Assembly (NCBI GenBank): GCA_000990325.1
Contig: LBPS01000001.1
Coordinates: forward strand, 1-57,543
Direction of reading: 5' to 3'
DNA: 57,543 bases
Source: Candidatus Nomurabacteria bacterium GW2011_GWE2_34_25
GTDB taxonomy: Bacteria; Patescibacteriota; Minisyncoccia; Phycocordibacterales; UBA9973
In this document: piece by piece, positions 2,127 through 53,610 of the stretch
Layout of the letters: the number at the start of each line of letters is the position of its first letter
Position numbering within the stretch: position 1 is the first letter of the stretch
The notes under the pieces: model-generated
What the model was told of the DNA's origin: nothing
Databases searched by the model: none
Seen by the model: only the letters and a program-made list of their open reading frames with translations
Made by a program: the position numbers and the translations under genes

Positions 2127-2438
2127 GGTTTGTATTGGATGGATGCGCCTGCCTTATCGGTGGGTGAGGAAAGTCCGGGCACATATTCAAGCATTGCTTG
2201 ATTAAACGTAGCGGGTAATACCCGTCGCCTGTAAGGGTAGAGTTGCGAACAGAGACGAGCTGCAACATTAATGAAAATTAGTGTTCGGGTGAAACGGCAA
2301 AATACTTACGCGTGTGCAAGATCGTACTAGATGAGCAATCATCTTTTGAATCGCTTGAGGTGTAGAGTAATTTACATCCTAGATAAATATCTATTACCCT
2401 AGCAATAGGGAACAGAACCCGGCTTATAGATACAAACC
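2127..2438 (+). ncRNA. rnpB: RNase P RNA (bacterial type, compact ~310 nt)
   Basis: Universal P4 strands GAGGAAAGTCCGGGC (2166-2180) and ACAGAACCCGGCTTA (2412-2426). GGGTGAAACGG element present. P1 pairing ggtttgtat (2127-2135) / atacaaacc (2430-2438). Ends are approximate. Confidence 0.9.
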
Positions 2439-2446
2439 AAATATAT

Positions 2447-5497: not shown

Positions 5498-5509
5498 TAA
5501 CTAAAATTC

Positions 5510-5530
5510 CCCAAAGGCCCGGCCTTTGGG
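5510..5530. repeat. Palindrome family A, copy 1 (between secA and HUH gene 1)
   Basis: cccaaaggc ccg gcctttggg: 9-bp GC-rich stem in AT-rich DNA. The same sequence occurs at 5829 and 6251. Confidence 0.9.
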
Positions 5531-5559
5531 AAATTTTGATAGGGTGATATAATATAAAA

Positions 5560-6300
5560 ATGAGTATTCGTAAAACAACACTTGTTGAAGGTGAATATTA
5601 TCATGTCTACAACAGGGGTAATGGTAAACAGAAAATATTTTTAGATGATGAAGACTATGAACGTTTTATAAAACTTTTGTATATTTGTAATTCAGAAAAG
5701 AAAATAAATTTTCGAGAAGAAATAGTAAATAAAAATATTGATGCTTTTGAGTTTAAAAGAGGTCAACAGATTGTATCTATGGGTGCATGGGTTCTAATGC
5801 CTAATCATTTTCATGTCTACATTACAATCCCCAAAGGCCCGGCCTTTGGGGAAAATAAGAAAGAAGAAAAAAATAGTTTAAATACAATTTCATTATTTAT
5901 AAACAAAGTATGTACTTCCTATTCAATGTATTTTAATAGAAAATACAAGAGAACCGGATCTTTGTTTGAAGGGAGATTTAAATCTGTTCACATAAAGAAT
6001 GATAATCAGGCAAAGTATTTATTTTCTTATATACACTTAAATCCTATTAAATTAATTCAATCAGACTGGAAAGATATTGGAATTAAAAATAAAAAAGAAG
6101 CATTAGATTTTCTTGATAATTATAAATGGGGGAGTTATTTAGATTATTTATATATAGAACGCAAAGAGAGTAAAATATTAAACAGAGAGAATTTTTTGAA
6201 TTATTTTGATACGAAAGAGTTATTTCAAAAGGAAATACTAGAATGGATTTCCCCAAAGGCCCGGCCTTTGGGAGATTTAATGGATGATAAAATATTTTAA
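5560..6300 (+). CDS. HUH/Y1 transposase-like protein (RAYT / IS200-like, COG1943-type), paralog 1
   Basis: HUH motif MPNHFHVY and Tyr motif YIHLNPIKL. Paralogous to ORFs 12479 and 45232. The coding sequence contains two family-A palindromes, read as PKGPAFG and PKARPLG. Confidence 0.8.
   Translation: MSIRKTTLVEGEYYHVYNRGNGKQKIFLDDEDYERFIKLLYICNSEKKINFREEIVNKNIDAFEFKRGQQIVSMGAWVLMPNHFHVYITIPKGPAFGENKKEEKNSLNTISLFINKVCTSYSMYFNRKYKRTGSLFEGRFKSVHIKNDNQAKYLFSYIHLNPIKLIQSDWKDIGIKNKKEALDFLDNYKWGSYLDYLYIERKESKILNRENFLNYFDTKELFQKEILEWISPKARPLGDLMDDKIF
5829..5851. repeat. Palindrome family A, copy 2, inside the coding sequence just after the HUH motif
   Basis: ccccaaaggcccggcctttgggg, in frame (ITIPKGPAFGENKK). 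The corresponding segment is absent from paralog 2. Confidence 0.9.
6251..6272. repeat. Palindrome family A, copy 3, forming the C-terminal tail of HUH gene 1
   Basis: ccccaaaggcccggcctttggg. Paralog 2 ends at the equivalent of EWL/EWI, whereas this ORF reads on through the palindrome. Confidence 0.9.
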
Positions 6301-7439: not shown

Positions 7440-7829
7440 CTTTATTTTAAGTTAATACTTTAGAGTCAAGTATATTTAAGTTTAATATTTTAAAGAGATA
7501 TATCAAATATCCTTATAAATCAAGGTTTTTATAATACAGAAGGGGATTATTGTCAAAAATGGCAAGAAATCCTTGTATTTAGGGCTTATTTTGACACAGT
7601 AAATACAAGGTTGTCAATGAATAGTATACAAAATACCCTTATATAATAAGGGTATTTTGTATTTGACGAGTATGAAAGTTATGGTATAACCATTGACTTT
7701 TATATAGCTATGTGCTACTATATAGGAAGTTCCAAGTATATCGTCATTATAGATTGTATATAAGGAACTTTTTACTTTAGATCAAATCTTTGTAAAAAGA
7801 TAGATTCAAAGTAGAACCCTTAGGGGCGC

Positions 7830-8432: not shown

Positions 8433-8447
8433 TTTAGACATTAAAAT

Positions 8448-8479
8448 AAATAGCCCGCGACATACGTCGCGGGCTATTT
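8448..8479. terminator. Bidirectional terminator between ORF 7830 and dnaE
   Basis: aaatagcccgcgac atac gtcgcgggctattt: perfect 14-bp stem with A/T runs on both sides. Confidence 0.75.
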
Positions 8480-8487
8480 ATTTTCCA

Positions 8488-11735: not shown

Positions 11736-12431
11736 TTGTTCTATATGGCAAATAAAGACACCATAAAATACATAATTGGTATAGATGAGGTTGGTAGAGG
11801 TCCTTTGGCGGGGCCCGTGGCGGTCTGTGCATTTCTTATAAAAGATAGAAAATTTCTTGATGAGCAGTTTGCCATAGGCCTTGCCTATGGCAAACTGCCG
11901 AAGCTTAAAGATTCTAAAAAGCTTTCTAAGAAGCAAAGGGAAGAGTGGTTTGAATATTTAAAAGTCGCAAAAGCCGAAGGCTTTTGCGACTACTCTGTAT
12001 CTTTTGTATCACCTGAAAATATCGATAAATTTGGAATTGCGAAATGTATACAGAAAGCGTTGAATGAATCTTTGCAGAAAGTAACTTCGCAAGATTCTTC
12101 AAATTCTTCGCGCTTTACCCTAAAGGGCTCCGACGCGGCTCAGAATTTTAAGAACCTTGCTTCGTTCGGTGTTTATCTAGACGGTGGACTTCATGCACCA
12201 GCCCAATACGTTAATCAAGAGACAATCATAAGAGGGGACGAACTTCATCCTGTTATTTCACTGGCGTCCATTGTGGCGAAAGTTACTCGTGACGCTGTGA
12301 TGACCAAATATGCAAAAGAATATCCCGAGTATGGTTTCGAGCGTCACGCAGGCTACGGTACCAAAGCTCACTACGAAGCCATCAAAACTCACGGACAGAC
12401 CCCCATCCACCGTAAAACCTTCATCCATTAA
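11736..12431 (+). CDS. rnhB: Ribonuclease HII carrying three in-frame palindromic insertions
   Basis: Motifs DEVGRGPLAGPV, DSKKLS, SIVAKVTRD, GYGT and HRKTF. 35 aa separate the GRGP and DSKKL motifs, longer than I recall for E. coli RnhB. Confidence 0.9.
   Translation: MFYMANKDTIKYIIGIDEVGRGPLAGPVAVCAFLIKDRKFLDEQFAIGLAYGKLPKLKDSKKLSKKQREEWFEYLKVAKAEGFCDYSVSFVSPENIDKFGIAKCIQKALNESLQKVTSQDSSNSSRFTLKGSDAAQNFKNLASFGVYLDGGLHAPAQYVNQETIIRGDELHPVISLASIVAKVTRDAVMTKYAKEYPEYGFERHAGYGTKAHYEAIKTHGQTPIHRKTFIH
11864..11898. repeat. Perfect 16-bp-stem palindrome inside rnhB
   Basis: gcagtttgccataggc ctt gcctatggcaaactgc, translated in frame as QFAIGLAYGKL. Confidence 0.9.
11963..11991. repeat. Perfect 13-bp-stem palindrome inside rnhB
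   Basis: agtcgcaaaagcc gaa ggcttttgcgact, translated as VAKAEGFCD. Confidence 0.9.
12089..12160. repeat. ~72-nt composite palindromic element inside rnhB (28-nt core 12111-12138)
   Basis: The core cgctttaccctaaagggctccgacgcgg is identical to 41858-41885. It is flanked by the imperfect inverted repeat gcaagattcttcaaattct / agaattttaagaaccttgc. The length of 72 nt preserves the frame. Confidence 0.8.
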
Positions 12432-12459
12432 ATGCACTAGGTCTTGCCTAGTGCATTTA
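12429..12459. repeat. Palindrome family B, copy 1 (loop tcttg); contains the rnhB stop codon
   Basis: taaatgcactagg tcttg cctagtgcattta: perfect 13-bp stem. Confidence 0.9.
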
Positions 12460-12478
12460 ATGAATATATAATAAATAT

Positions 12479-13141
12479 ATGTCTATTAGAAAAGTAAATT
12501 TTGTAGGTGGTGAATATTACCATATTTACAATCGTGGAAATAGTAAACAGAAAATTTTTCACGATAATCAAGATTATCGTCGCTTTGTAGACTTATTATA
12601 TTTGTTAAATAATAGTCAAAATCTTAATGTATTTCATTTAAATAGAAGTAGTACTTTTGACGTGTATGAAACTAAAATTGATAATAAATTAGTTTCAATT
12701 GGTGCATATTGTCTAATGCCCAATCATTTTCATCTTTTAGCAACGGAAAAAACAGAAGGAGGTATAAGTAAATTTATGCAAAAACTAACAACTGCATATG
12801 TGATGTATTACAATAAAAAACAAGAAAGAACAGGGGGTCTTTTCGAGGGTAAATTTAAGGCGGAACATGCGGGGGATGACAGATATTTAAAGTATTTATA
12901 TTCTTATGTACATCTTAACCCTATAAAACTTATAGATAAAAAATGGAAAGAAGAGGGGGTAAAAGATAGAAATGAAGCTTTAAAATATTTGGGTGAATAT
13001 AAGTATTCTAGTTACCTTGATTATATAGGAGAAAATAGAATTCAAAATAAAATTTTAGATATGGATAGTTTCCCTAAATATTTTTCAACAGACAAAGCTT
13101 TTAAAAGTGAAATTTTTGAGTGGTTAAATTATAATATCTAA
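12479..13141 (+). CDS. HUH/Y1 transposase-like protein (RAYT / IS200-like), paralog 2
   Basis: HUH motif MPNHFHLL and Tyr motif YVHLNPIKL. Flanked by family-B palindromes in inverted orientation. Confidence 0.85.
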   Translation: MSIRKVNFVGGEYYHIYNRGNSKQKIFHDNQDYRRFVDLLYLLNNSQNLNVFHLNRSSTFDVYETKIDNKLVSIGAYCLMPNHFHLLATEKTEGGISKFMQKLTTAYVMYYNKKQERTGGLFEGKFKAEHAGDDRYLKYLYSYVHLNPIKLIDKKWKEEGVKDRNEALKYLGEYKYSSYLDYIGENRIQNKILDMDSFPKYFSTDKAFKSEIFEWLNYNI

Positions 13142-13171
13142 AATGCACTAGGCAAGACCTAGTGCATTTTA
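13139..13171. repeat. Palindrome family B, copy 2 (loop caaga, inverted relative to copy 1); contains the stop codon of HUH gene 2
   Basis: taaaatgcactagg caaga cctagtgcatttta. Confidence 0.9.
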
Positions 13172-13203
13172 AGCTTAATTGAATTATGTTATAGTTAATA
13201 AAT

Positions 13204-13779
13204 ATGGAAACAGAATATGAAGCTACTTATATAAATATTGATAAAGACGAAATAAGAGAAAGACTAAAAAATTCTGGAGCTGTTTTAGAAAGATCTGAAT
13301 TTTTACAGAAAAGAATTCCTTTCGATTTATCATACGAGAAACAAGCCTTACATACTTTTGCAAGAGTTAGAGACGAGGGAGATAAAATAACAATGAGTAT
13401 AAAATCTATAAATGGTGATAAAATTCATAATCAGAATGAGTTGTGTCTTACTGTAGATAATTTTGATCATGCCGTTAAATTTTTGGAGTTATTGGGGTGT
13501 AATCCTAAGTCATATCAAGAGAGTAAGCGTGAGCTATGGAGATTAGATGGTGTTGAAATAACAATAGATACGTGGCCATTTTTAGAACCATTTGTTGAGG
13601 TTGAGGGTAGGTCAGAAGAAGAAGTTAAAAAAGTTTCTAAAAAGATTGGTTTTGATTATTCTGAGGCATTATTTTGTGGAACTGATAAGATATATGAAAT
13701 GAAATACGGAATTTCTTGTGTAAAAGTTAATAACATTCCAAAAATAATTTTTGATATGGAAAATCCATTTATAAAATAA
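13204..13779 (+). CDS. CYTH-domain protein (class IV adenylate cyclase / triphosphate tunnel metalloenzyme-like)
   Basis: 191 aa. N-terminal acidic strand TEYEATYI, RVRDEGDKITMSIKS, and VEITIDTWPFLEPFVEVEG typical of CyaB/CYTH. Confidence 0.6.
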   Translation: METEYEATYINIDKDEIRERLKNSGAVLERSEFLQKRIPFDLSYEKQALHTFARVRDEGDKITMSIKSINGDKIHNQNELCLTVDNFDHAVKFLELLGCNPKSYQESKRELWRLDGVEITIDTWPFLEPFVEVEGRSEEEVKKVSKKIGFDYSEALFCGTDKIYEMKYGISCVKVNNIPKIIFDMENPFIK

Positions 13780-13809
13780 AATGCACTAGGCAAGACCTAG
13801 TGCATTTTA
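13777..13809. repeat. Palindrome family B, copy 3; contains the stop codon of the CYTH gene and abuts the pepN 3' end
   Basis: taaaatgcactagg caaga cctagtgcatttta, identical to copy 2. Confidence 0.9.
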
Positions 13810-13813
13810 TTTT

Positions 13814-16561: not shown

Positions 16562-17281
16562 ATGAAAAATAAAACATTAAAAAACTTAATAGCACTTGGC
16601 GCATTGGCTGTTTTTGTTTTGGGGTTTGATTTTGCCTCTGCTGCAGTATATGCATATCCTTCTTCTTGGACAATACCAGTGTCTTCAAATAGTATGCAGG
16701 ATTATTATCAGAGTGATTATAATTATTCAAATAATTACAATAATTATAATTCAAATCAATATGGCTATGTTCAACAGCAATCTACTCAGCAACCGTATTA
16801 TTATGTTCAGCCACAAGTAAAATACGTAACACAACCTACCACAACTCAGATTCAGTATGTTCCTCAGCAAACTGTACAATACGTCCCTTCACAGCAAACA
16901 GTTAAATACGTAAATACTGTTCCCAATACAAATAGCAATCTAGGAGCTTCAGTTGTAAGATCAAATACAATTACAACAGTAAATAAAAACACAGGAGCAA
17001 CGGGTAATACTGGTCAATATGTAAGTTATGATGCAAATAATCCAAATGTGATGTTGGCAAGTGCGTACGGAGCTTATAATGGACAGCAAGTTATTCAACC
17101 TCAGGTAGTCAACGATACTAACGGAGTAACTGCCTTAACAGTAAAAGGTTCTGGAGGTTTTATGCCTAGTTCAGTATTCCAATGGTTCTTGATAGTACTA
17201 TTAATCTTAGGAATTATAATAGTTGCCCGTATGGTAAGTAAATCATTCTCAAGGGATCCACATGGAACAGTAGCGCATTAA
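16562..17281 (+). CDS. Secreted Q/Y/N/T-rich low-complexity protein with C-terminal membrane anchor
   Basis: Signal peptide LIALGALAVFVLGFDFASA. YNNYN and QQ..YV repeats. C-terminal TM FQWFLIVLLILGIIIVARMV. Promoter TTGACA-18-TGATATAAT lies 6 nt from the ATG. Confidence 0.7.
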   Translation: MKNKTLKNLIALGALAVFVLGFDFASAAVYAYPSSWTIPVSSNSMQDYYQSDYNYSNNYNNYNSNQYGYVQQQSTQQPYYYVQPQVKYVTQPTTTQIQYVPQQTVQYVPSQQTVKYVNTVPNTNSNLGASVVRSNTITTVNKNTGATGNTGQYVSYDANNPNVMLASAYGAYNGQQVIQPQVVNDTNGVTALTVKGSGGFMPSSVFQWFLIVLLILGIIIVARMVSKSFSRDPHGTVAH

Positions 17282-18228: not shown

Positions 18229-18300
18229 TCCGTGGTAGCTCAGCGGTAGAGCGATCGCCTGTTAAGCGATTGGTCGTAGGTTCGATCCCTACCCACGGAG
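18229..18300 (+). tRNA. tRNA-Asn (anticodon GTT)
   Basis: Full cloverleaf drawn by hand: acceptor TCCGTGG/CCACGGA, D stem GCTC/GAGC, anticodon stem ATCGC/GCGAT with loop CTGTTAA, T stem GTAGG/CCTAC with loop TTCGATC. No encoded CCA. Confidence 0.92.
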
Positions 18301-19968
18301 CAAGATAGGACAAACGTCCCCAAAAACCTCATTTCGTTCTGAAGTATCAATGATATTTTCAGGTTCGAACTGAGGATTTTTTGTTCTTGCTTCATTTAGT
18401 CCATCAATGAGTTTCTGTATTGGTTCTACGTTGATAATATTAAGTATTTTCTCATTCCATACTAGGTTCGAACCAAGTTTGGTAAACATAGCTCTTTTGT
18501 CTTTTGTTAAACCATTTTTAATGATTTCAGATATTTCTGTTGTTAAATCAACCATATCATTAGCAATTTTATACCAATCACGATTTTTATTTTTAGGATT
18601 ATTTAATTCTAAAAGTTCTTTGTCTATTCCATCTATATCAGCTTTATAATCTGAAGCATTAATTTGACCATCAGCGAGCATTTGACGATACCTTCTTTTA
18701 CGTTCTTCTAATTGTTCTATCAATGGAGTTCTACTTGCAGATTCAATTAAATCGGTCTGAATCTCTTTGTCTTTAATTTCACTTATGTTACGTTTACACC
18801 ATTCAGCTAGAGATTGTGACATAACTAAGTTTTTCTCGGTGTATGAACGAAAATATGTCGTTATTTTTCCTTCCTCAATATACTTAACAGATTCTCTCTT
18901 TTTTCTCTTAGGTACATTGTAATAGTAAGAATAATTAAGATATTTAGGATTCTTGATTTTATTTATTGCTATTCCACATTTAGGACAATTAGTTTTGTTT
19001 TGACTAGCAAATTTATATTTACATTGGCATATTACTTGTAGCTTAATATCTGCTCCTATAAACTCACCAAATGGAGATTTTATAAAACCAGAATAAGTAG
19101 ATTCGTGGGTCTGTGTTTTAGGTAGTGTTCTACTGGATAACATTCTTAGTATTTTAAAATGGTCATCCTCAGTTATTATTCTAGGTAAGTCTTTTGAGAG
19201 TTCATATTTTGTATTTTGTTGATAAAATACTCCAGCATATATTGAGTCTTTAAGAATTGTATAAACTCTTGAGTAAGTAATTAAATTACCACCACTTCTT
19301 TTGTGTTTAGGTGTAGTTAGTTTAGCTGAATTTATAGCCCAGTCATAAATTTGTGTTCCAGAATAATTTCCTGACAGGAACATATTAAGCATCTCTTTAA
19401 TTATTGGTAGTCTTATTTCATCCACCATCCATTTGCGATTTCCTTTTTCTTCTGTTTTATCATTTAAGAAACCAAGAGTAGCAAGTCCGTGAGGATACCC
19501 CATAGATGCTTTTTTGGTTTGCCCACGTTTAACATTTACTGATAGTTCTTTTACAAATTGTTTTCCTTGGCTGAATTCAACTGACAAAACAATAACATTA
19601 TCCCAAGGATAAAATACTTTATCGTGTGTAATTATTGCCTTAATTTTTCCTGAACTTAGAAGGTCAATTATCTGTCCTCCTTCCGTCATATTTCTAGCTA
19701 GTCTGTCTGCTTTCCAGCAAACAATTGCATCTATCTCTCCCTTATCTATCATCTTCATCATTCTAGAAAACTCTGGTCTTACTCCTTCTGCTTTGGCTGA
19801 TTTTGATTCTTTAAATACTCCCACAAATGGTGAGAGTTTATAAAACTCTGCTATTCTTTTTGCTTCATCTGTCTGAGAATCAATAGAAAGCATCTGTCTA
19901 TCTTCATCTTCAGTAGATTTTCGATTATAATTTCCGATTTTTAATTTTGTAAAATCTATTGGGTTCAT
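18289..19968 (-). CDS. Large serine recombinase (integrase)
   Basis: 559 aa. N-terminal resolvase catalytic region YNRKSTEDEDRQMLSIDSQ. Recombinase domain. Zn-ribbon CQCKY..CPKCG. C-terminal coiled coil. Its last 12 nt overlap the 3' end of tRNA-Asn on the opposite strand. Confidence 0.88.
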   Translation of the reverse strand: MNPIDFTKLKIGNYNRKSTEDEDRQMLSIDSQTDEAKRIAEFYKLSPFVGVFKESKSAKAEGVRPEFSRMMKMIDKGEIDAIVCWKADRLARNMTEGGQIIDLLSSGKIKAIITHDKVFYPWDNVIVLSVEFSQGKQFVKELSVNVKRGQTKKASMGYPHGLATLGFLNDKTEEKGNRKWMVDEIRLPIIKEMLNMFLSGNYSGTQIYDWAINSAKLTTPKHKRSGGNLITYSRVYTILKDSIYAGVFYQQNTKYELSKDLPRIITEDDHFKILRMLSSRTLPKTQTHESTYSGFIKSPFGEFIGADIKLQVICQCKYKFASQNKTNCPKCGIAINKIKNPKYLNYSYYYNVPKRKKRESVKYIEEGKITTYFRSYTEKNLVMSQSLAEWCKRNISEIKDKEIQTDLIESASRTPLIEQLEERKRRYRQMLADGQINASDYKADIDGIDKELLELNNPKNKNRDWYKIANDMVDLTTEISEIIKNGLTKDKRAMFTKLGSNLVWNEKILNIINVEPIQKLIDGLNEARTKNPQFEPENIIDTSERNEVFGDVCPILLRG

Positions 19969-21962: not shown

Positions 21963-22174
21963 CAAAAAGCCTGAATATTGTTATAGTATACTTACAAATA
22001 AATAGTAGACCTAACCTTTAGAGATTCTCTCTAGAGTATGGTCAAAACCCCGTGAAGAATAAAGAACTCTTAGTCAGAGTTTTGCCTTCACGGGTCATAC
22101 TTGGAAACGAGTATGGGTGGCTTAAAAACCATCAATCTGGCTAGGAGCTTTTTGCGTTTTAGCCGACAAAATAT

Positions 22175-22427: not shown

Positions 22428-23090
22428 ATGAAAACTAAAAAATATATTTTAATTCTATTATTAATAACTTTTATCATTCCATCTATTACATCTGCTTCTT
22501 GGTGGAACCCATTGAGCTGGTCAAAAAATCCTAAACAAAGTATTGATGTAGTTGAATCAAATTCAGTTCAATTAACCGATGAATCTGTCTCAATACCTGA
22601 AACTAAACCCAAAGAAGTTATTAAACCTAAAGTTGTTGAAAAAATAGTAGAAAAACCAATAGTTAAAACAATAACAGTGCAAGACCCAGCACTTCAGATT
22701 AAAATAAATACACTTATAACAGAAAACGAATCTTTAAAAGCTCAGGTAATTAAACTTCTTGAATCTAATAAATCACTTAATAGTGAATTATTATCTTGTG
22801 AAGACAAACCTACTTCTACTTTTTCTGCTGATGACCAATGTGATTATGCAAAAGAATCTTTGGCTTCCTTTAATAGACAAATCCAAGAAATTACTCTTGA
22901 AAGAAGTAAGGAATTGGAGAGAATAAAAACAAATCCAACTGAGGCAGAAAGTAAATATAGAGATATCTATAATCGTTCGGGGTTAGCTTCAATGATTGGG
23001 AGTTTCAAGGCAGGAACAAGTTATGAACTTAAACCACTTGTTAAGGGTAGAGATTCTGCTCAATCAGCAATTGCTTTATATTGTAATTAA
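22428..23090 (+). CDS. Secreted coiled-coil protein
   Basis: 220 aa. Signal peptide ILILLLITFIIPSITSASW. KP/KV-rich linker and heptad-like region. Confidence 0.55.
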   Translation: MKTKKYILILLLITFIIPSITSASWWNPLSWSKNPKQSIDVVESNSVQLTDESVSIPETKPKEVIKPKVVEKIVEKPIVKTITVQDPALQIKINTLITENESLKAQVIKLLESNKSLNSELLSCEDKPTSTFSADDQCDYAKESLASFNRQIQEITLERSKELERIKTNPTEAESKYRDIYNRSGLASMIGSFKAGTSYELKPLVKGRDSAQSAIALYCN

Positions 23091-41836: not shown

Positions 41837-41909
41837 GTAGTTTATTAAATTTTTTCCCGCTTTACCCTAAAGGGCTCCGACGCGGATAAAAATTTTAAAA
41901 AACTACTAC
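41837..41909. repeat. Second copy of the ~72-nt composite palindromic element (core 41858-41885), intergenic
   Basis: The core cgctttaccctaaagggctccgacgcgg is identical to 12111-12138. It is flanked by AT-rich imperfect inverted arms gtagtttattaaatttttt / aaaaattttaaaaaactac. Confidence 0.8.
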
Positions 41910-42551: not shown

Positions 42552-42590
42552 AAATTAATAATTACGAATTAAGAATTTAATATATGAATC

Positions 42591-42627
42591 AAAATAGCAT
42601 CGCCGACTTTGTCGGCGATGCTATTTT
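42591..42627. terminator. Bidirectional terminator between pth and rpsA
   Basis: aaaatagcatcgccgac ttt gtcggcgatgctatttt: perfect 17-bp stem. Confidence 0.8.
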
Positions 42628-42645
42628 GTAGTCAGTAATTCGTAA

Positions 42646-44124: not shown

Positions 44125-45144
44125 ATGCAAAATACCCAAAAATTGAAAGTTGTTGTTTCTCAAATGCCCCCTTTTGTTATGGAGTCAAATAATAAATATT
44201 CTGGGTTTGAAGTTGATTTATGGGAAATGATAGCGAGAGAAATGGGAGTAGGTTTTGAATATAAAAAATATAATTTTCAAGAATTAATTCCTATTGTAAA
44301 TAAAAGAGAGGCTGATGTTGCTTTTGCTTCGATAACTATTAATGAAAAAAGAGAAGAGATTATAGATTTTTCTCACTCAACTTTTAATTCTGGTTTACAT
44401 ATATTACTGTCAAAAAATCGTAAAAATATTAATTTTGGTAATACCATAAAGACATTTTTTGCTGAGGGTTATAAACAGTTTTTAAAACCGTTGCTTATTC
44501 TTCTTGGTATTATATTGATGCTAGGTACTGTCTTGTATATTGTAGAAAGAAATAACGGCTCAATGTCTCTCGCTTATTTTCCTGGAATTCTACAAGTAAC
44601 ATGGATATTTATGTGTTCAATGCTTGGATTAGATGGAGCTCTATTTGTGTACTCAGTTAGTTCTTGGATCGGAAGATTAATAGTTTCTCTGGGGCAATTA
44701 ATAAGTCTTGCCTTTCTTGGTTTATTTATTGGAGAATTAACTGCTTTTATTACAACCAAAAAATTTCGTTTAAATATTGAAGGAGCAAAAGATTTAGAAG
44801 GTAAAAATGTTGCAACAGTAGAAGGAACTACAAGTCAATCTATCCTTAAGGGTTTTGGTGCAATAGTAACTTCTGTAACAACAATAGAAGAAGCTTACAA
44901 AAAGCTTAAGAATAATCAAATAGACGCCGTTGTCTTTGATGCACCAGTATTAAAATACTATGTACTTAATGAAGGAGCAGAATGGGCAGAAATTACCGGA
45001 GAAGTATTTGATAAACAAGAATATGGATTTGTTTTACAAGAGGGTAGTCCACTTAGAAAAGACGTGAACCTAGCAATCTTGACTCTTCGAGAAAATGGTT
45101 CGTATGATGAATTGTACAAAAAATGGTTTGGAGAAATTGAATAA
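44125..45144 (+). CDS. Prokaryotic ionotropic-glutamate-receptor-like channel (split SBP_bac_3 ligand-binding domain with embedded pore)
   Basis: Lobe 1 GFEVDLWEMIAREMG. M1-pore-M3 insert with pore loop WIFMCSMLGLDG and M3 GRLIVSLGQLISLAFLGLFIGELTAFIT (compare the iGluR SYTANLAAF region). Lobe 2 ends in ...LYKKWFG. No M4. Confidence 0.75.
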   Translation: MQNTQKLKVVVSQMPPFVMESNNKYSGFEVDLWEMIAREMGVGFEYKKYNFQELIPIVNKREADVAFASITINEKREEIIDFSHSTFNSGLHILLSKNRKNINFGNTIKTFFAEGYKQFLKPLLILLGIILMLGTVLYIVERNNGSMSLAYFPGILQVTWIFMCSMLGLDGALFVYSVSSWIGRLIVSLGQLISLAFLGLFIGELTAFITTKKFRLNIEGAKDLEGKNVATVEGTTSQSILKGFGAIVTSVTTIEEAYKKLKNNQIDAVVFDAPVLKYYVLNEGAEWAEITGEVFDKQEYGFVLQEGSPLRKDVNLAILTLRENGSYDELYKKWFGEIE

Positions 45145-45174: not shown

Positions 45175-45203
45175 CCCAGATAGTGGCCTTGCCACTATCT
45201 GGG
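45175..45203. repeat. Palindrome family C, copy 1 (loop ctt), upstream of HUH gene 3
   Basis: cccagatagtggc ctt gccactatctggg. Confidence 0.9.
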
Positions 45204-45231: not shown

Positions 45232-45951
45232 ATGAGTACAAGAAGACAACCTTTAATAACAGGGCAGATGTATCATATTTATAACCGTGGGGTAGACAAG
45301 CGGGATATTTTTTCAGATAAAAATGATATTTATCGCTTTTTAGAAAGTATTAAAGAATTTAATAGGGAAGATAAAATAATAAGTCTTGCAAATATTCGTA
45401 AATTTAATCAGATAGAGGCCTTGCCTCTATCTGAGAGAGAAAATAAGAAGCCATTAGTAGAAATTATAGGATATTGTCTTAATCCTAATCATTTTCATTT
45501 TATATTGAGACAAGTTTCAGACAATGGTATTTCAAAATTCATGCATAAGTTACAAGGTGGATATTCTTATTATTTTAATGTAAAAAATACCCGATCAGGT
45601 TCTTTATTTCAGGGTAAATTTAAATCACAAATAATTGTTAATGAAAATTATTTTAATAAATTAATAGGTTATGTTAATAAAAATTATTTAATTCATAATA
45701 TTCCAGAAAATAAAAACCAGTTAGTTTTCTCTGGAGATTTCGAATATGAAAATAAGAAATTTGATATTATATCTAAAAAAGAAGGGGAAAGAATTTTAGA
45801 AATCTTTGGAGGTGTAAATAAGTTTAAAAAACATTGCGATGAAATAGTTTCAATAGTTAGGGAGGAAAGAGGGAAGAAATCCTTGCTTGAAGATGAGGAT
45901 TTGAATGTAATTATAGAAAGTCTTCCAGATAGTGGCAAGGCCACTATCTGA
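45232..45951 (+). CDS. HUH/Y1 transposase-like protein (RAYT / IS200-like), paralog 3
   Basis: LNPNHFHFIL (HUH). YVNKNYLIH lies at the Tyr-motif position. Shares the N-terminal YHIYNRG block with paralogs 1 and 2. Confidence 0.75.
   Translation: MSTRRQPLITGQMYHIYNRGVDKRDIFSDKNDIYRFLESIKEFNREDKIISLANIRKFNQIEALPLSERENKKPLVEIIGYCLNPNHFHFILRQVSDNGISKFMHKLQGGYSYYFNVKNTRSGSLFQGKFKSQIIVNENYFNKLIGYVNKNYLIHNIPENKNQLVFSGDFEYENKKFDIISKKEGERILEIFGGVNKFKKHCDEIVSIVREERGKKSLLEDEDLNVIIESLPDSGKATI
45408..45434. repeat. Palindrome family C, copy 2, inside the coding sequence, with compensatory stem changes
   Basis: tcagatagaggc ctt gcctctatctga. T-to-A in the 5' arm is matched by A-to-T in the 3' arm relative to copies 1 and 3. 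Read in frame as NQIEALPLSE. Confidence 0.85.
45926..45950. repeat. Palindrome family C, copy 3 (loop aag, inverted relative to copy 1), forming the C-terminus and stop of HUH gene 3
   Basis: cagatagtggc aag gccactatctg, followed by a that completes the TGA stop. Confidence 0.9.
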
Positions 45952-50091: not shown

Positions 50092-51403
50092 TTTTCAAAC
50101 AATTCTGGTTGCAATATTTTTAGCCTTCTTTGTTGTTGGAGTTTTAATATTCTCCGGTCTCATTGATCTTGATTCTGGACCAGGACCAGACAATATTTCA
50201 GGTAAGGTTGTTGTATGGGGTACATTTCCAGACTCTTTTGTATCGACAGCTATTGGTATGGTAGATAATAATGATTTAAATATTAATTATGTGAAAAAAA
50301 ATGCCTCAACTTATCAACAAGATTTGATTGAAGCATTTGCAAATGGTAATGGCCCTGATCTCTTTATCATATCGCCAGATATGATAAAAAGGAATGATAA
50401 TTTTGTATACAAAATACCTTATGGAACTCTTCCTAAAGAATCATTTCGTAATTTATATATAGATGGAGCTGATATATATCTAGACAAAGAAGGTATTATA
50501 GGCTTTCCTATTGTTGTTGACCCTATTGTTTTGTATTACAACAAAGATATTCTAGCCAATGAAGGCATAGTCTCTCCTCCTAAGAGTTGGGATGAGTTAT
50601 TTGTACTAAATTCTGCCTTAACAAAAAGAGAATCAGTTGGAAGTGGCGTATTAAAACAGAGCATGATAGCATTGGGCCAATATACCAACGTGAACAATGC
50701 TAAAGACATCATAGCAACTCTACTCCTTCAGAATAGTAACCCAATCGTCAAGAGAGGAGAAGGAGGAGAAGGAAGTGAAGGCTACGTGTCCATGTTGAAT
50801 AGCAATGTTTTGAAATCATCTGTTTCTCCCATAGAGGCAGTCTTGGAATTCTTTATATCATTTTCTAGTCCTTCCGATACCTCTTACTCTTGGAATCGTT
50901 CGTTGCCAAATTCATTGGATATGTTTACTTCTGGGAAGCTCGCTTTTTATCTAGGTTATTCAAGTGAACTATTCAACATAGAATCCATAAATCCAAATTT
51001 GAGTTTTAATGTGACGGAAATTCCACAGATTAAAAATTCAACAACGAAGAGAACTTTTGGTGAGATATATGCCATTGCTGTGAATAAAAAGTCTGGCAAT
51101 CTCACCTCAGCGTTGGGTGTGGCCAATCTATTGAGTGAAGGAGAAGTAGCAAAGGAAGTCAGTATCTCAAGTTCACTGCCACCTGTATCTAGAACTCTCC
51201 TTTCTGATAAACCAACAGATGATAATTATTTGTTTACATTTTTTAATTCAGCCCTCATTTCAAGATCTTGGCTTGATCCTGATAAGGTCAAGACCAAGGA
51301 ACTATTTGGAAGTTTGATAGAGAATATATTATCCAATAAATTGTCGATGGGTGAGGCTATAAATAAAGCACAAGGTCAATTCGAGCTTTTACTTAGAAAA
51401 TAA
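50084..51403 (+). CDS. Membrane-anchored extracellular solute-binding-protein-like protein
   Basis: 439 aa. N-terminal TM. General family-1 SBP layout (weak assignment). Confidence 0.5.
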   Translation: MNNFQTILVAIFLAFFVVGVLIFSGLIDLDSGPGPDNISGKVVVWGTFPDSFVSTAIGMVDNNDLNINYVKKNASTYQQDLIEAFANGNGPDLFIISPDMIKRNDNFVYKIPYGTLPKESFRNLYIDGADIYLDKEGIIGFPIVVDPIVLYYNKDILANEGIVSPPKSWDELFVLNSALTKRESVGSGVLKQSMIALGQYTNVNNAKDIIATLLLQNSNPIVKRGEGGEGSEGYVSMLNSNVLKSSVSPIEAVLEFFISFSSPSDTSYSWNRSLPNSLDMFTSGKLAFYLGYSSELFNIESINPNLSFNVTEIPQIKNSTTKRTFGEIYAIAVNKKSGNLTSALGVANLLSEGEVAKEVSISSSLPPVSRTLLSDKPTDDNYLFTFFNSALISRSWLDPDKVKTKELFGSLIENILSNKLSMGEAINKAQGQFELLLRK

Positions 51404-51405
51404 TT

Positions 51406-51870
51406 ATGTTTAAAAAAATATTTATATTTATATTTGGTTTTATGATAATTTTCTCGCCATCTTTCTTGATGGTAGAATCAGCTGGGTTGGTTCCTAAGTG
51501 CAATACAATAGCTACTCCTGAAACTACCGAAGTTATAAATGGTGTTACTGTTAGTACGCATGCAGGCTTTAAGGATCCTTGTGATTTCAATATGCTAATG
51601 ACTTTGATCAACACAGTTATATCTTTCTTGTTGATAGACTTGGCTACTCCTATATTTGTCCTGATTCTCATATATGTAGCATGGCTTTATCTGAGTGATA
51701 TGGGTAGCTCAGAAAACATTTCTAAAGCCAAGAAGATTTTGAAAAATGCCTTCATAGGGTATATCATAGCCTTGGCCGCATGGCTGATTGTGAAGACTAT
51801 CCTCACAACCCTGGGGTTTGAAGGCGAGACATTCTTGAGTTCATCATTAATATTATCAACAATAATTTAA
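51406..51870 (+). CDS. TrbC/VirB2-like pilin-type small membrane protein, paralog 1 of 5
   Basis: Signal/TM, variable ectodomain, then a two-TM hairpin with charged loop (...YLSDMGSSENISKAKKILKNAFIGYIIALAAWLIV). Confidence 0.55.
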   Translation: MFKKIFIFIFGFMIIFSPSFLMVESAGLVPKCNTIATPETTEVINGVTVSTHAGFKDPCDFNMLMTLINTVISFLLIDLATPIFVLILIYVAWLYLSDMGSSENISKAKKILKNAFIGYIIALAAWLIVKTILTTLGFEGETFLSSSLILSTII

Positions 51871-51874
51871 AAAA

Positions 51875-52348
51875 ATGAAAAAATTTAAAGAAAAAAAATA
51901 CAGCATTTTATTAAAGATTTTAAAATATAGCTTTGTATTTATTTTAGGTTTTACTTTAGTTGCCAATTTTGCTTTTGCTGTTATGTGTCCAGATGGAGTT
52001 GATAGAGTTACTTGTTCAGCTGGTGGCGATGGCACTACTGATGAACAAGCTGGCTTTGATGGTACAAATATTACTACCAAGATAAACAATCCATTGGGTC
52101 CGAAGTTGACCAATATCCCTGCTTTTATACATGCAGTAGTGGAGATAGTTCTTGTGGTGGGTATTCCTATTATTGCTTTAGCTATTATATATACTGGGCT
52201 TCTGTTTGTAATGGCTCAAGGTAACTCTGAAAAGATTACCAAGGCCAAGAAAGCCTTGATGTATGTCCTGATCGGAGCGGCATTATTATTGGGGGCGTTT
52301 GTGATTGCAAATGCCATTCAGTCAACGGTCGATGAAATTAAAAATTGA
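51875..52348 (+). CDS. TrbC/VirB2-like pilin-type small membrane protein, paralog 2
   Basis: Same architecture: ...LFVMAQGNSEKITKAKKALMYVLIGAALLLGAFVI. Confidence 0.55.
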   Translation: MKKFKEKKYSILLKILKYSFVFILGFTLVANFAFAVMCPDGVDRVTCSAGGDGTTDEQAGFDGTNITTKINNPLGPKLTNIPAFIHAVVEIVLVVGIPIIALAIIYTGLLFVMAQGNSEKITKAKKALMYVLIGAALLLGAFVIANAIQSTVDEIKN

Positions 52349-52372
52349 TAATATTATTATTTTAAAAATTAT

Positions 52373-52753
52373 ATGAAAAAAATTGTTTTGTTTGGTAATT
52401 TTATTGGAGGATTGTTGATGTTTTCATTTGTTGGAGCAGAAGATACTACTGTAGCCAGAATTTGTACTGAAAATGATCTTCATACAGTAGGAGGTATTAT
52501 TAATTGGGTAAGTTGTCTTCTTTACAGAGCCGTAATTCCGTTATTGTTTGCTCTAGGGACAGCTGGATTTATATGGGGAGTTATTCAGTTTTATTTGAAT
52601 CCTGACAATGAAGAAAAGAGAAAGAAAGGGAAGAGTTTCATAGTAGGGGGATTGATTGCTTTGTTTCTTATGGTTGCCATGTGGGGGATAGTAAATGTTT
52701 TTACCAATACTTTTGATCTTCCAAATACTATTCCACAGCTTCCAGGACAATAA
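52373..52753 (+). CDS. TrbC/VirB2-like pilin-type small membrane protein, paralog 3
   Basis: FIWGVIQFYLNPDNEEKRKKGKSFIVGGLIALFLMVAMWGIV. Confidence 0.6.
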   Translation: MKKIVLFGNFIGGLLMFSFVGAEDTTVARICTENDLHTVGGIINWVSCLLYRAVIPLLFALGTAGFIWGVIQFYLNPDNEEKRKKGKSFIVGGLIALFLMVAMWGIVNVFTNTFDLPNTIPQLPGQ

Positions 52754-52888
52754 TAAAATGAGTAAAGTATTGTCATTTTTATGACGTTTTGTGATATAAT
52801 TAGAAGTATAAGTTAAGTTGTCTTTTCCACTCTGGTCGGTTGAAGAGACTAAATATTATAAGGATTATTAATTATTAAATTATTAAGT

Positions 52889-53260
52889 ATGAAAAAGATA
52901 ATTGCTTTAGGTTTTGTTTTAGGAGCTACTCCGCTTTTGGCCTTAGCTGCAGATACTGTGACCGCTTTTAGTATTTTGGCTAGGATTGCCCAATTGTTAG
53001 ATTTCGTTATGCCTATATTGATAGCGCTTGCTGTTGTATATTTTATTTGGGGCGTTATACAATACACTGTTTCTACAGATGAAGAAGCCAAGAAGGGTGC
53101 TCGTGGCAAAATCATTCAAGGTCTTATTGGCTTGTTCGTAATCGTTGCTTTCTGGGGAATTATTAGTCTTATTACAACAACATTCGGAGTTGGCCCTGAA
53201 AGATTAAATCCAAATTCTATTCCTTGTATTCCTAATCCATCGATAGGAGTTGTTTGCTAA
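52889..53260 (+). CDS. TrbC/VirB2-like pilin-type small membrane protein, paralog 4
   Basis: FIWGVIQYTVSTDEEAKKGARGKIIQGLIGLFVIVAFWGII. Confidence 0.6.
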   Translation: MKKIIALGFVLGATPLLALAADTVTAFSILARIAQLLDFVMPILIALAVVYFIWGVIQYTVSTDEEAKKGARGKIIQGLIGLFVIVAFWGIISLITTTFGVGPERLNPNSIPCIPNPSIGVVC

Positions 53261-53589
53261 TTACAATATTTATGACAATTATACCAATAGCTGAGGCGAG
53301 TGTCGTTACTCTCATGGGTAAGGTCAATGATGTTATTATTAATCCAATAATAATATTCGTGTTCGTCTTGGCTACGGTGTACTTTCTTTATGGTCTTATA
53401 CAGTATTTAATATCTCCTGACAATGAAGAGATACGTACGAGTAGTAAGTCGCATATGCTTTGGGGTATTGTAGGTATGTTTATTATGATTTCGGTTTTTG
53501 GAATTATGAATATTATACTCAATACTCTAGGGGAAGAAAATATTAAAATAGAATCTGATGGTAGTTATACTGTTGGAGATATTAAATAA
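53254..53589 (+). CDS. TrbC/VirB2-like pilin-type small membrane protein, paralog 5
   Basis: FLYGLIQYLISPDNEEIRTSSKSHMLWGIVGMFIMISVFGIM. The likely true start is ATG at 53272. Confidence 0.55.
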   Translation: MLITIFMTIIPIAEASVVTLMGKVNDVIINPIIIFVFVLATVYFLYGLIQYLISPDNEEIRTSSKSHMLWGIVGMFIMISVFGIMNIILNTLGEENIKIESDGSYTVGDIK

Positions 53590-53610
53590 AATATCAAATA
53601 AGTGAAAATA

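Follow-up and report, generated by a model that had tools for sequence, protein, structure and literature searches.

What kind of system is formed when a gene for a putative DNA-processing enzyme lies among short palindromes of its own, and when one small genome holds several such pairs? We considered this question for a 57,543-nucleotide stretch of Candidatus Nomurabacteria bacterium GW2011_GWE2_34_25 (contig LBPS01000001.1), the whole of which we call the window. A preliminary description of this DNA had reported three paralogous genes resembling those for REP-associated tyrosine transposases (RAYTs), enzymes named after repetitive extragenic palindromic sequences (REPs), each with a different family of palindromes beside it. 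We conclude, with a probability of roughly 0.7, that these are three REPtron-like units from a large Paceibacteria/Nomurabacteria clade, in which vertically inherited Y1/HUH genes, single-copy per class, sit amid their cognate hairpins.

Three Y1/HUH proteins

The window has a GC content of ~32%, and its proteins have homologues from Paceibacterota, Nomurabacteria and other Patescibacteria. The Pfam profile Y1_Tnp (PF01797, cut-off 23) matched paralogs 2 and 3 with 39.4 and 32.7 bits, respectively; paralog 1 had no Pfam match at E ≤ 0.01. Paralog 1 has an in-frame insertion beside its HUH motif and shares 49% identity with paralog 2. Identity among the three proteins is 34–49%, and an HFH motif and a tyrosine are kept in all of them; across 11 of 11 aligned sequences, H83-F84-H85 and Y143 (paralog 2 numbering) were invariant. 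The HFH motif aligns with PDHVH of ISDra2 and PEHMH of Escherichia coli TnpA_REP and the tyrosine motif with DYIYINPVK, and both the HUH and the Y-I-x-x-N-P-(I/V)-K motifs align with the E. coli TnpA_REP structure 4er8. Among curated NCBI families, the top match for all three was REP_Tyr_transpos (NF047646), at 48.2 (paralog 1), 40.2 and 34.2 bits, and none of the IS200 models matched any of them at E ≤ 0.1. Pfam, motifs and mutual identity thus bear out the proposal of three RAYT-like genes, and the catalytic His and Tyr residues, singled out beforehand as the place where it might fail, are aligned and intact in all three. No fourth paralog was found within the window. Two open reading frames of paralog-like length (16562–17281 and 22428–23090) proved unrelated to the paralogs, and lipocalin matches to paralog 2 in a single-sequence search of the PDB were spurious. 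The homologues of paralog 2, ~219 amino acids long, number more than 7,900, the best 120 of them being 63–76% identical, and paralog 3 belongs to a separate conserved clade.

Each gene lies among its own perfect hairpins

A scan of the window for perfect hairpins showed that all nine hairpins of the three families are perfect palindromes (Table 1). Family A reads CCCAAAGGC-CCG-GCCTTTGGG, family B AATGCACTAGG-TCTTG/CAAGA-CCTAGTGCATT and family C CAGATAGTGGC-CTT/AAG-GCCACTATCTG. A copy search allowing up to three mismatches returned exactly three copies per family in the window and none in the 100 shuffles that served as background. Folding energies of the hairpins as single-stranded DNA ranged from −11 to −20 kcal/mol (z-scores between −4.5 and −9.7). 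An Rfam scan of the window placed no RNA family at the hairpins and found RNase P RNA, LOOT RNA and a tRNA elsewhere.

The layout read earlier from the sequence largely stands. The hairpins flanking paralog 2 are in opposite loop orientation (TCTTG versus CAAGA), a third family B copy lies past the CYTH-domain gene, and the flanks of paralog 3 are likewise opposed (CTT versus AAG), with an internal family C copy whose stem shows a compensated T:A to A:T swap. Paralog 1 does have a third sequence of its own, present as three exact perfect copies in one orientation, two of which are translated; the internal copies of families A and C are in-frame coding sequence. The families share GG(C/T)C..GCC tips, in agreement with the GGC-CTT-GCC-like tip that had been noted. 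Two statements hold in part. Stop codons had been placed in hairpin arms, and we found the whole stops of rnhB, paralog 2 and the CYTH gene there, but only the first two stop bases of paralog 3. Inspection by eye had found no dispersed copies; indeed none of families A, B and C recurs elsewhere in the window, but rnhB holds an orphan hairpin with the GGCCTTGCC tip.

Table 1. Coordinates of the paralogs, hairpins and other features in the window (position 1 is its first nucleotide)
Feature	Position	Strand	Remarks
Paralog 1, Y1/HUH RAYT-like, 246 amino acids	5560–6300	+	HFH at residues 83–85; Tyr in SYIHLNP
Family A hairpin, 5′ of paralog 1	5510–5530		Imperfect extension 5503–5537
Family A hairpin inside paralog 1	5828–5852		In frame (TIPKGPAFGE), directly past HUH motif
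Family A hairpin at end of paralog 1	6252–6272		Translated into C-terminus
Paralog 2, Y1/HUH RAYT-like, 220 amino acids	12479–13141	+	Y1_Tnp profile, motifs
Family B hairpin, 5′ of paralog 2	12426–12462		Holds rnhB stop (12429–12431) and predicted −35 TTGCCT (12444–12449)
Predicted −10 TATAAT	12467–12472	+	17 nucleotides past loop TTGCCT, 6 nucleotides before paralog 2 ATG
Family B hairpin, inverted loop CAAGA	13139–13171		First three bases are paralog 2 stop (13139–13141)
CYTH-domain gene	13204–13779	+	Between two like-oriented family B hairpins; gene in this slot varies in orthologous loci
Third family B hairpin	13773–13813		CYTH stop 13777–13779; A-run/T-run flanks; between convergent CYTH and M1 peptidase genes
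Paralog 3, Y1/HUH RAYT-like, 239 amino acids	45232–45951	+	HFH; Tyr in GYVNKN
Family C hairpin, 5′ of paralog 3	45175–45203		
Family C variant hairpin inside paralog 3	45408–45434		In frame (NQIEALPLSE, residues ~59–68)
Family C hairpin, inverted loop	45926–45950		Codes C-terminus and first two bases of TGA stop (45949–45951)
Orphan hairpin in rnhB, GGCCTTGCC tip, fourth stem	11864–11898		In frame, peptide EQFAIGLAYGKLP
Second perfect hairpin in rnhB coding sequence	11963–11991		KVAKAEGFCDY; 13-bp stem, GCC-GAA-GGC tip
RNase P RNA (class A)	2127–2442		Rfam scan
LOOT RNA	22008–22133		Rfam scan
tRNA-Asn	18229–18301		Rfam scan

Hairpin class follows the protein

We compared about 190 related loci from separate assemblies. 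The set for the paralog-2 clade comprised 80 loci from species-representative genomes and other loci, which gave 88 unique genes; that for the paralog-3 clade comprised 80 loci at 41–82% identity, 71 of them complete; and that for the paralog-1 clade consisted of metagenome loci at 55–64% identity, 16 of them complete. In the paralog-2 clade, the class of the hairpin stem follows the neighbour-joining tree of the proteins. Pairs of proteins with the same class share 69.7% identity, versus 60.9% for pairs of different classes, and 0 of 1000 permutations of stem class over the 88 genes reached the observed value. The stem classes of this clade are TGCGTTAGG, TGCACTAGG, AGCTAGG, CCGCTAGG, GTGCTAGG, TTGCTAGG, CGACTAGG, TGTGAGG, AACAGG and CCCATAGG. 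The paralog-3 clade shows 39 distinct apical 7-mers; these were identical in 82% of within-locus pairs and in 3.8% of between-locus pairs, and the corresponding values for the paralog-1 clade were 87.5% and 7.8%. Paralogs of one assembly differ in stem class. The match between class and tree, the identity within loci and the differing classes of paralogs together lend good support to the one-to-one pairing of genes and hairpins, as first suggested by the three families beside three paralogs.

The arrangement of the hairpins is also conserved. At least one flanking tip hairpin accompanies 80 of the 88 paralog-2 clade genes, and ~68 have hairpins on both sides. Upstream tips mostly face the gene (67 versus 8), with the tip centre 34–37 nucleotides 5′ of the ATG in ~65 genes, and downstream hairpins are mostly inverted relative to the upstream ones (58 versus 22). 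As a rule the downstream hairpin overlaps the stop codon, so the stops built into hairpins that had been seen in the window are a conserved trait of this clade. A tip-centred profile placed the conserved core at the apex (TAGG-YCTTG-CCTA). Positions ±5, which lie outside the search pattern, are A/T in 158 of 160 hairpins, and positions ±6 to ±12 vary between loci and are still paired; beyond the palindrome, the profile contained A/T richness and no conserved cleavage or guide motif. Genes of the other two clades are likewise flanked by their own palindromes. Paralog-3 clade loci mostly have three hairpins (upstream, internal and at the C-terminus or stop), the internal one at residues 56–65 in 41 of the 71 complete loci. 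In the paralog-1 clade, the internal hairpin falls at residues 88–90, just past the HUH motif (residues ~81–84), in 11 of the 16 complete loci, and locus L113 has the same internal-hairpin arrangement.

We also observed two recurrent groupings of hairpins. Inverted doublets joined by GTAC or a short spacer, which resemble REPINs, occur at six loci (L038, L069, L091, L080, L262 and L266). A third cognate hairpin 0.5–1.1 kb from the Y1 gene often brackets one neighbour gene, as in the window (13139–13813) and at nine further loci. The bracketed genes are diverse (CYTH, EamA transporters at two loci, NADAR and proteins without a Pfam match), and the arrangement may be cassette-like.

Hairpins occur away from the genes in related genomes

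The source genome itself carries few copies. The hairpin census covered the window and 9 kb past its end, ~66 kb of genome together, and within it we found, apart from the copies at the three genes themselves, a single copy at a neighbour gene and, in rnhB, a single orphan, which belongs to a fourth class. For related genomes, we scanned for the 15-mer tip, which covered at least 120 loci, mostly from Patescibacteria; in other phyla, among the matches listed, there were scattered matches whose stems end at the 15-mer. An orphan was defined as a long-stem hairpin (stem of at least 8 bp) in a stretch of up to 8 kb with no Y1 gene detected, and window entries were subtracted. Among the matches listed, to which all counts in the rest of this paragraph apply except those for the exact family B palindrome, 29 of the 75 hairpins with such stems were at a Y1 gene and 46 (~60%) were orphans. 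By position, 20 of these orphans share bases with a stop codon, 12 are within coding sequence and the remaining 14 are intergenic or unclassified. In 13 of 14 cases, an orphan with a Y1 gene no more than 3 kb away had the class of that local gene. Distant orphans from assemblies with a sampled Y1 gene matched its class in 11 of 25 cases, compared with ~8% expected, in a tally made by hand and with the paralogs of each genome incompletely sampled. A scan of species-representative genomes for the exact family B palindrome (27 nucleotides), which listed no contig of the source assembly, found it at 12 places in the genomes of 10 other species; two of these 12 places adjoin a paralog-2 relative. 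The contrast that had been drawn with classical REP/RAYT systems, which have many dispersed REPs, therefore fails on this point, because related genomes do carry orphans.

Hairpins in frame in housekeeping genes

The rnhB gene of the window contains two hairpins in its coding sequence. Alignments to solved RNase HII structures have gaps exactly there, which identifies both as insertions. The second (11963–11991) is kept in the rnhB genes of two species (L175 and L215) by compensated double changes, from AAAAGCC/GGCTTTT to AAAGACC/GGTCTTT and AAAAACC/GGTTTTT, with the amino acids altered. Coding hairpins in RNase HII genes were found in the window and four other species (L175, L215, L108 and L117), and four species (L121, L127, L162 and L167) have in-frame hairpins at the same site of RNase HI with different stems. 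Further in-frame carriers, confirmed with Pfam, are KsgA (two species), Fpg, MnmA (two insertions), DNA polymerase III delta-prime and an orthologue of the M1 peptidase. RNase H genes account for 6 of the ~14 sampled coding-sequence hairpins, at orthologous sites and with genome-specific stems. Palindromes of the CTAGG-CAAGA-CCTAG type have one open frame per strand, encoding x-R-Q-D-L-x on the given strand, and TAG in the other frames, which explains why stop codons are so often contributed by hairpins.

A different repeat also touches rnhB. The 28-nucleotide exact repeat CGCTTTACCCTAAAGGGCTCCGACGCGG (alike over ~50 nucleotides) is present at 12111–12138, in frame in the variable insert of rnhB, and at 41858–41885, in an intergenic position; it is unrelated to families A, B and C. 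The short public contig L002 begins exactly at CGCTTTACCCTAAAGGGCTCCGACGCGG and stops inside a family B hairpin, and these end points suggest that CGCTTTACCCTAAAGGGCTCCGACGCGG is multi-copy in the genome.

A predicted promoter in the upstream hairpin

The loop of the hairpin 5′ of paralog 2 coincides with a predicted −35 element (Table 1), and a simple promoter scan returned the same site, TTGCCT-17-TATAAT. The consensus of the paralog-2 clade is aGG.cTTgCCta, 17 nucleotides, TATAAT, 6 nucleotides and ATG, with TTGCC at −35 to −31 and TATAAT at −12 to −7. The TATAAT positions are conserved in 54–75 of 85 genes, and at least five of six bases of the −10 box matched for 51 of 67 inward-facing tips, compared with 4% at background positions. 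A ribosome-binding site would not fit in the 6 nucleotides between the −10 box and the ATG; this implies a leaderless mRNA, which is our prediction for the paralog 2 transcript. Paralog 1 has an analogous promoter, TTGGGA (5526–5531, the right arm plus one base)-16-TGnTATAAT (5548–5553). The tip is as conserved in downstream and orphan copies as in upstream ones, which indicates that its conservation does not come solely from a promoter role. The 3′ hairpins of paralogs 2 and 3 also have inward promoter-like sites on the minus strand, TTGCCT-16-TATAAT (13155–13128) and TTGCCA-17-TATAAT (45938–45910). We rejected an antisense promoter as a role of the 3′ hairpin, because such a promoter was kept in only 6 of 58 cases in the paralog-2 clade. 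In E. coli, REPs near stop codons are reported to affect termination or translation, and the stop-codon hairpins described here may do likewise.

These observations raise the possibility that the hairpins are expression signals only (promoter or operator, terminator with stop, attenuator), that the protein is at most an autoregulator, that no hairpin is mobilized and that the orphans are look-alike terminators. The fixed geometry of a promoter whose −35 element lies in the hairpin loop is what such signals would look like, as are the downstream copies and the stop-codon orphans counted above, often with A-run/T-run flanks, and the very low copy number in the source genome. However, an orphan and a Y1 gene of one genome have the exact family stem in common at a rate far above chance, and the 27-nucleotide family B palindrome recurs in ten other species. 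Copies also stand in frame in unrelated housekeeping genes, inside which termination would be detrimental, and orthologous genes have same-site hairpins with different, genome-specific stems. Moreover, HUH/Y1 enzymes are by family nucleases of hairpin DNA (PMC6006769). We therefore regard a purely regulatory role of the hairpins as improbable.

Paralog 2 is inherited at a stable locus

The gene order at paralog 2 is dnaE (−), rnhB, paralog 2, the CYTH-domain gene and the M1 aminopeptidase gene (−). Our synteny comparison, which covered paralog 2 loci, showed that orthologues with 74–76% identity also lie between rnhB and the M1 peptidase gene and have family B hairpins; in one orthologue, the loop has ATT in place of CTT. 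The dnaE gene is upstream in the window and in the P0004 loci and not in the P0002 loci, and the slot after paralog 2 holds a CYTH gene, an open reading frame of 82 amino acids or an AAA kinase gene. The same neighbour genes were present in 18 of 20 contigs read with the paralog 2 protein; the hairpins, too, are the same in two sequenced ones. We found no relatives on IMG/VR viral contigs, and plasmid matches were all below 35% identity. The inheritance of paralog 2 is thus the housekeeping-like behaviour that is described for RAYTs (PMC5581495).

This pattern bears on whether a gene with its two end hairpins could be an autonomous insertion sequence (IS) of the IS200/IS605 type, moving via a single-stranded circle, as the IS200/IS605-like inverted ends in the preliminary description had hinted. 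The proteins do have the Y1_Tnp domain, a compact unit of ~750 bp is bounded by hairpins on either side, there are several paralogs per genome, and the adjoining genes differ among relatives. However, near-identical copies were not seen, the paralogs being only 34–49% identical, and the orthologues occupy one chromosomal position. The end hairpins are mostly inverted rather than like-oriented on one strand, and the 3′ hairpin lies within coding sequence. No IS200 NCBIfam matched, the genes called beside paralog 2 and its orthologues included no tnpB-like gene, and thousands of homologues, with the best 120 at 63–76% identity, suggest long vertical persistence. Synteny, divergence, hairpin orientation, absence from viral contigs and weak plasmid matches led us to reject the autonomous element, which we consider very unlikely. 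Chance matches or assembly artefacts, which come to mind because palindromes can break assemblies and contig L002 runs from the 28-nucleotide repeat into a family B hairpin, have a negligible probability given an expectation of zero in shuffles, the shared neighbour genes and hairpins of the contigs read, and like architecture in ~190 loci of unrelated assemblies.

Relation to known systems

The preliminary description had contrasted these gene and hairpin pairs with classical REP/RAYT systems. This contrast is not sustained by the literature, in which multiple RAYTs with their own REP families and in-frame REPs have been published (PMC6006769, PMC3116915). The REPtron arrangement has been described, and REP insertions are also known in unrelated genes (PMC6006769). 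In subclass 2.4, REPs lie in frame inside the tnpA_REP gene, between the HUH and Tyr motifs, and subclasses 2.6 and 3 have atypical flanking structures without GTAG (PMC6006769). One Pseudomonas genome has three REPIN families adjoining three distinct single-copy RAYTs (PMC3116915). These reports establish the traits that had been thought unusual.

Like the REPtron, known from E. coli yafM and a 12-subclass survey (PMC6006769), the present units combine HUH and Y-I-x-x-N-P-V/I-K motifs with palindromes of their own that flank the gene, usually inverted. In both, each palindrome family has one gene, a genome may hold several families, and vertical inheritance at a stable locus is combined with extra copies elsewhere in the genome, which for the present units were seen in related genomes. 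Unlike typical REPs, which reach high numbers, the present palindromes are perfect and occur in only a handful of copies. The proteins, of ~220–245 amino acids, have a C-terminal extension and fall below the NCBI RAYT cut-off, and that survey did not cover Patescibacteria, the group to which the present, genome-reduced host belongs. The in-frame palindrome between HUH and Tyr in paralog 1 resembles TnpA_Y1 subclass 2.4, and the flanking structures without GTAG resemble subclasses 2.6 and 3, a likeness by description and not a class assignment. In contrast to these subclasses, the internal copies described here are fixed by clade, at residue ~89 in the paralog-1 clade and at ~59, before HUH, in the paralog-3 clade, and they match their own flanking copies in 82–87.5% of within-locus pairs.

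The REPIN/RAYT system of Pseudomonas fluorescens SBW25 (PMC3116915) likewise has three single-copy RAYTs, each beside its own repeat family, and REPIN-like inverted doublets occur at a few of our loci (L038, L069 and L091). REPINs are described as REP doublets that can number hundreds per genome, whereas the present elements are mostly low-copy singlets, many of them on stop codons or in coding sequence. The IS200/IS605 transposases (TnpA of IS608 and ISDra2) share the Y1/HUH fold family, as the top fold matches indicate, and read subterminal hairpins as single-stranded DNA; unlike these elements, the present units lack multi-copy identical elements, keep their synteny and have inverted hairpins that overlap coding sequence. 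The palindromic elements of Rickettsia are in-frame insertions of ~100–150 bp in housekeeping proteins and offer a parallel for short palindromic repeats tolerated there. We know of no cognate nuclease gene for them, whereas the present units are 20–40 bp and paired with Y1 genes.

We therefore class the system as a variant of the REPtron and not as a new kind of element. It differs from the known systems in its host lineage, its apical motif without GTAG, its perfect palindromy, its low copy number, its fixed three-hairpin plan, the predicted promoter in a hairpin and its sub-threshold similarity to RAYTs. Our literature search found no paper linking RAYTs or REPs with Patescibacteria, and the wider literature may hold one.

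Proposed mechanism and the weight of the evidence

We propose that each enzyme would recognize its own hairpin once this is extruded on single-stranded DNA, and would nick and rejoin the DNA beside it through the HUH/Tyr centre, thereby copying or overwriting hairpins of the same class. Such copying or overwriting would explain both the orphans and the homogenization of hairpins within loci. In the paralog-2 clade, the upstream hairpin would also provide the −35 element of a promoter for leaderless mRNA, and downstream hairpins may double as stop codon and terminator in a very compact genome.

Several observations count against this interpretation. None of the three paralogs reached the equivalog cut-off of NF047646, which is 80 bits, and a profile search against solved RAYT and IS200 structures gave weak matches (ISDra2 and TnpA_REP, E values of 0.27–0.93). 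An AlphaFold2 model had moderate confidence, with a predicted local distance difference test (pLDDT) score of 65.4; its top Foldseek match was IS608 TnpA (2a6m) at an E value of 0.055 and a probability of 0.97, and the list also held IS200 and ISDra2, with none at E ≤ 0.001. Given the moderate confidence of the model, we regard the fold search as suggestive rather than decisive. The GT[AG]G foot of REPs is absent from the present hairpins, whose conservation is apical in the paralog-2 clade and whose lower stem is family-specific. In E. coli, W94, Q95 and R104 read GTAG, and in our weak alignment to 4er8 the W-Q pair appears to align with F-E of the consensus. In the ~66 kb of the source genome covered by the census, every copy of families A, B and C is at its own gene or no more than 700 bp away from it, and at so low a copy number any mobilization of hairpins in this genome is conjectural. 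Binding, cleavage and copying are deduced from family membership. Finally, template-switch repair could by itself, with no such enzyme involved, produce both perfect palindromes and compensated changes, and template-switch correction of quasi-palindromes may also maintain perfect palindromy.

A stronger version of the proposal is that the enzymes replace hairpins already present, at the same site, with hairpins of their own class, a site-directed and sequence-programmable rewriting of DNA. We offer it tentatively and think it rather doubtful. In-place overwriting would explain why internal copies at fixed sites match the flanking copies of their locus, why orthologous RNase HI and HII genes have genome-specific stems at one site and why single neighbour genes are often bracketed by cognate hairpins.

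Other features of the window

Unique long perfect hairpins with A-run/T-run flanks are found at gene ends at 7626–7662, 8443–8484 and 42590–42628; none is related to families A, B and C, and ordinary bidirectional termination is their probable function. The gene directly 5′ of paralog 3 (44125–45144) encodes a solute-binding domain (SBP_bac_3) together with ligand-gated ion channel domains, a combination that resembles prokaryotic channels of the glutamate-receptor type. Five small genes with matches to a pilin-like Pfam family of type IV secretion systems (PF18895) lie beside a solute-binding protein gene at ~51400–53600, coordinates that were mapped from the reversed locus L325.

Significance

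The role of RAYTs and the recognition and movement of REPs are standing questions, for which this clade is an unusually clean natural data set. It offers several paralogs in a compact low-GC genome, short perfect hairpins with few copies per class, fixed positions (promoter, within the gene, stop codon) and thousands of co-varying protein and hairpin pairs. The peptides that hairpins encode in RNase HI and HII, KsgA, Fpg, MnmA and pepN matter for annotation and structural work. Genome-reduced bacteria of the candidate phyla radiation keep, and apparently depend on, such systems. If the enzymes do overwrite hairpins in place, the thousands of protein and hairpin pairs would amount to a readable recognition code for Y1 nucleases.

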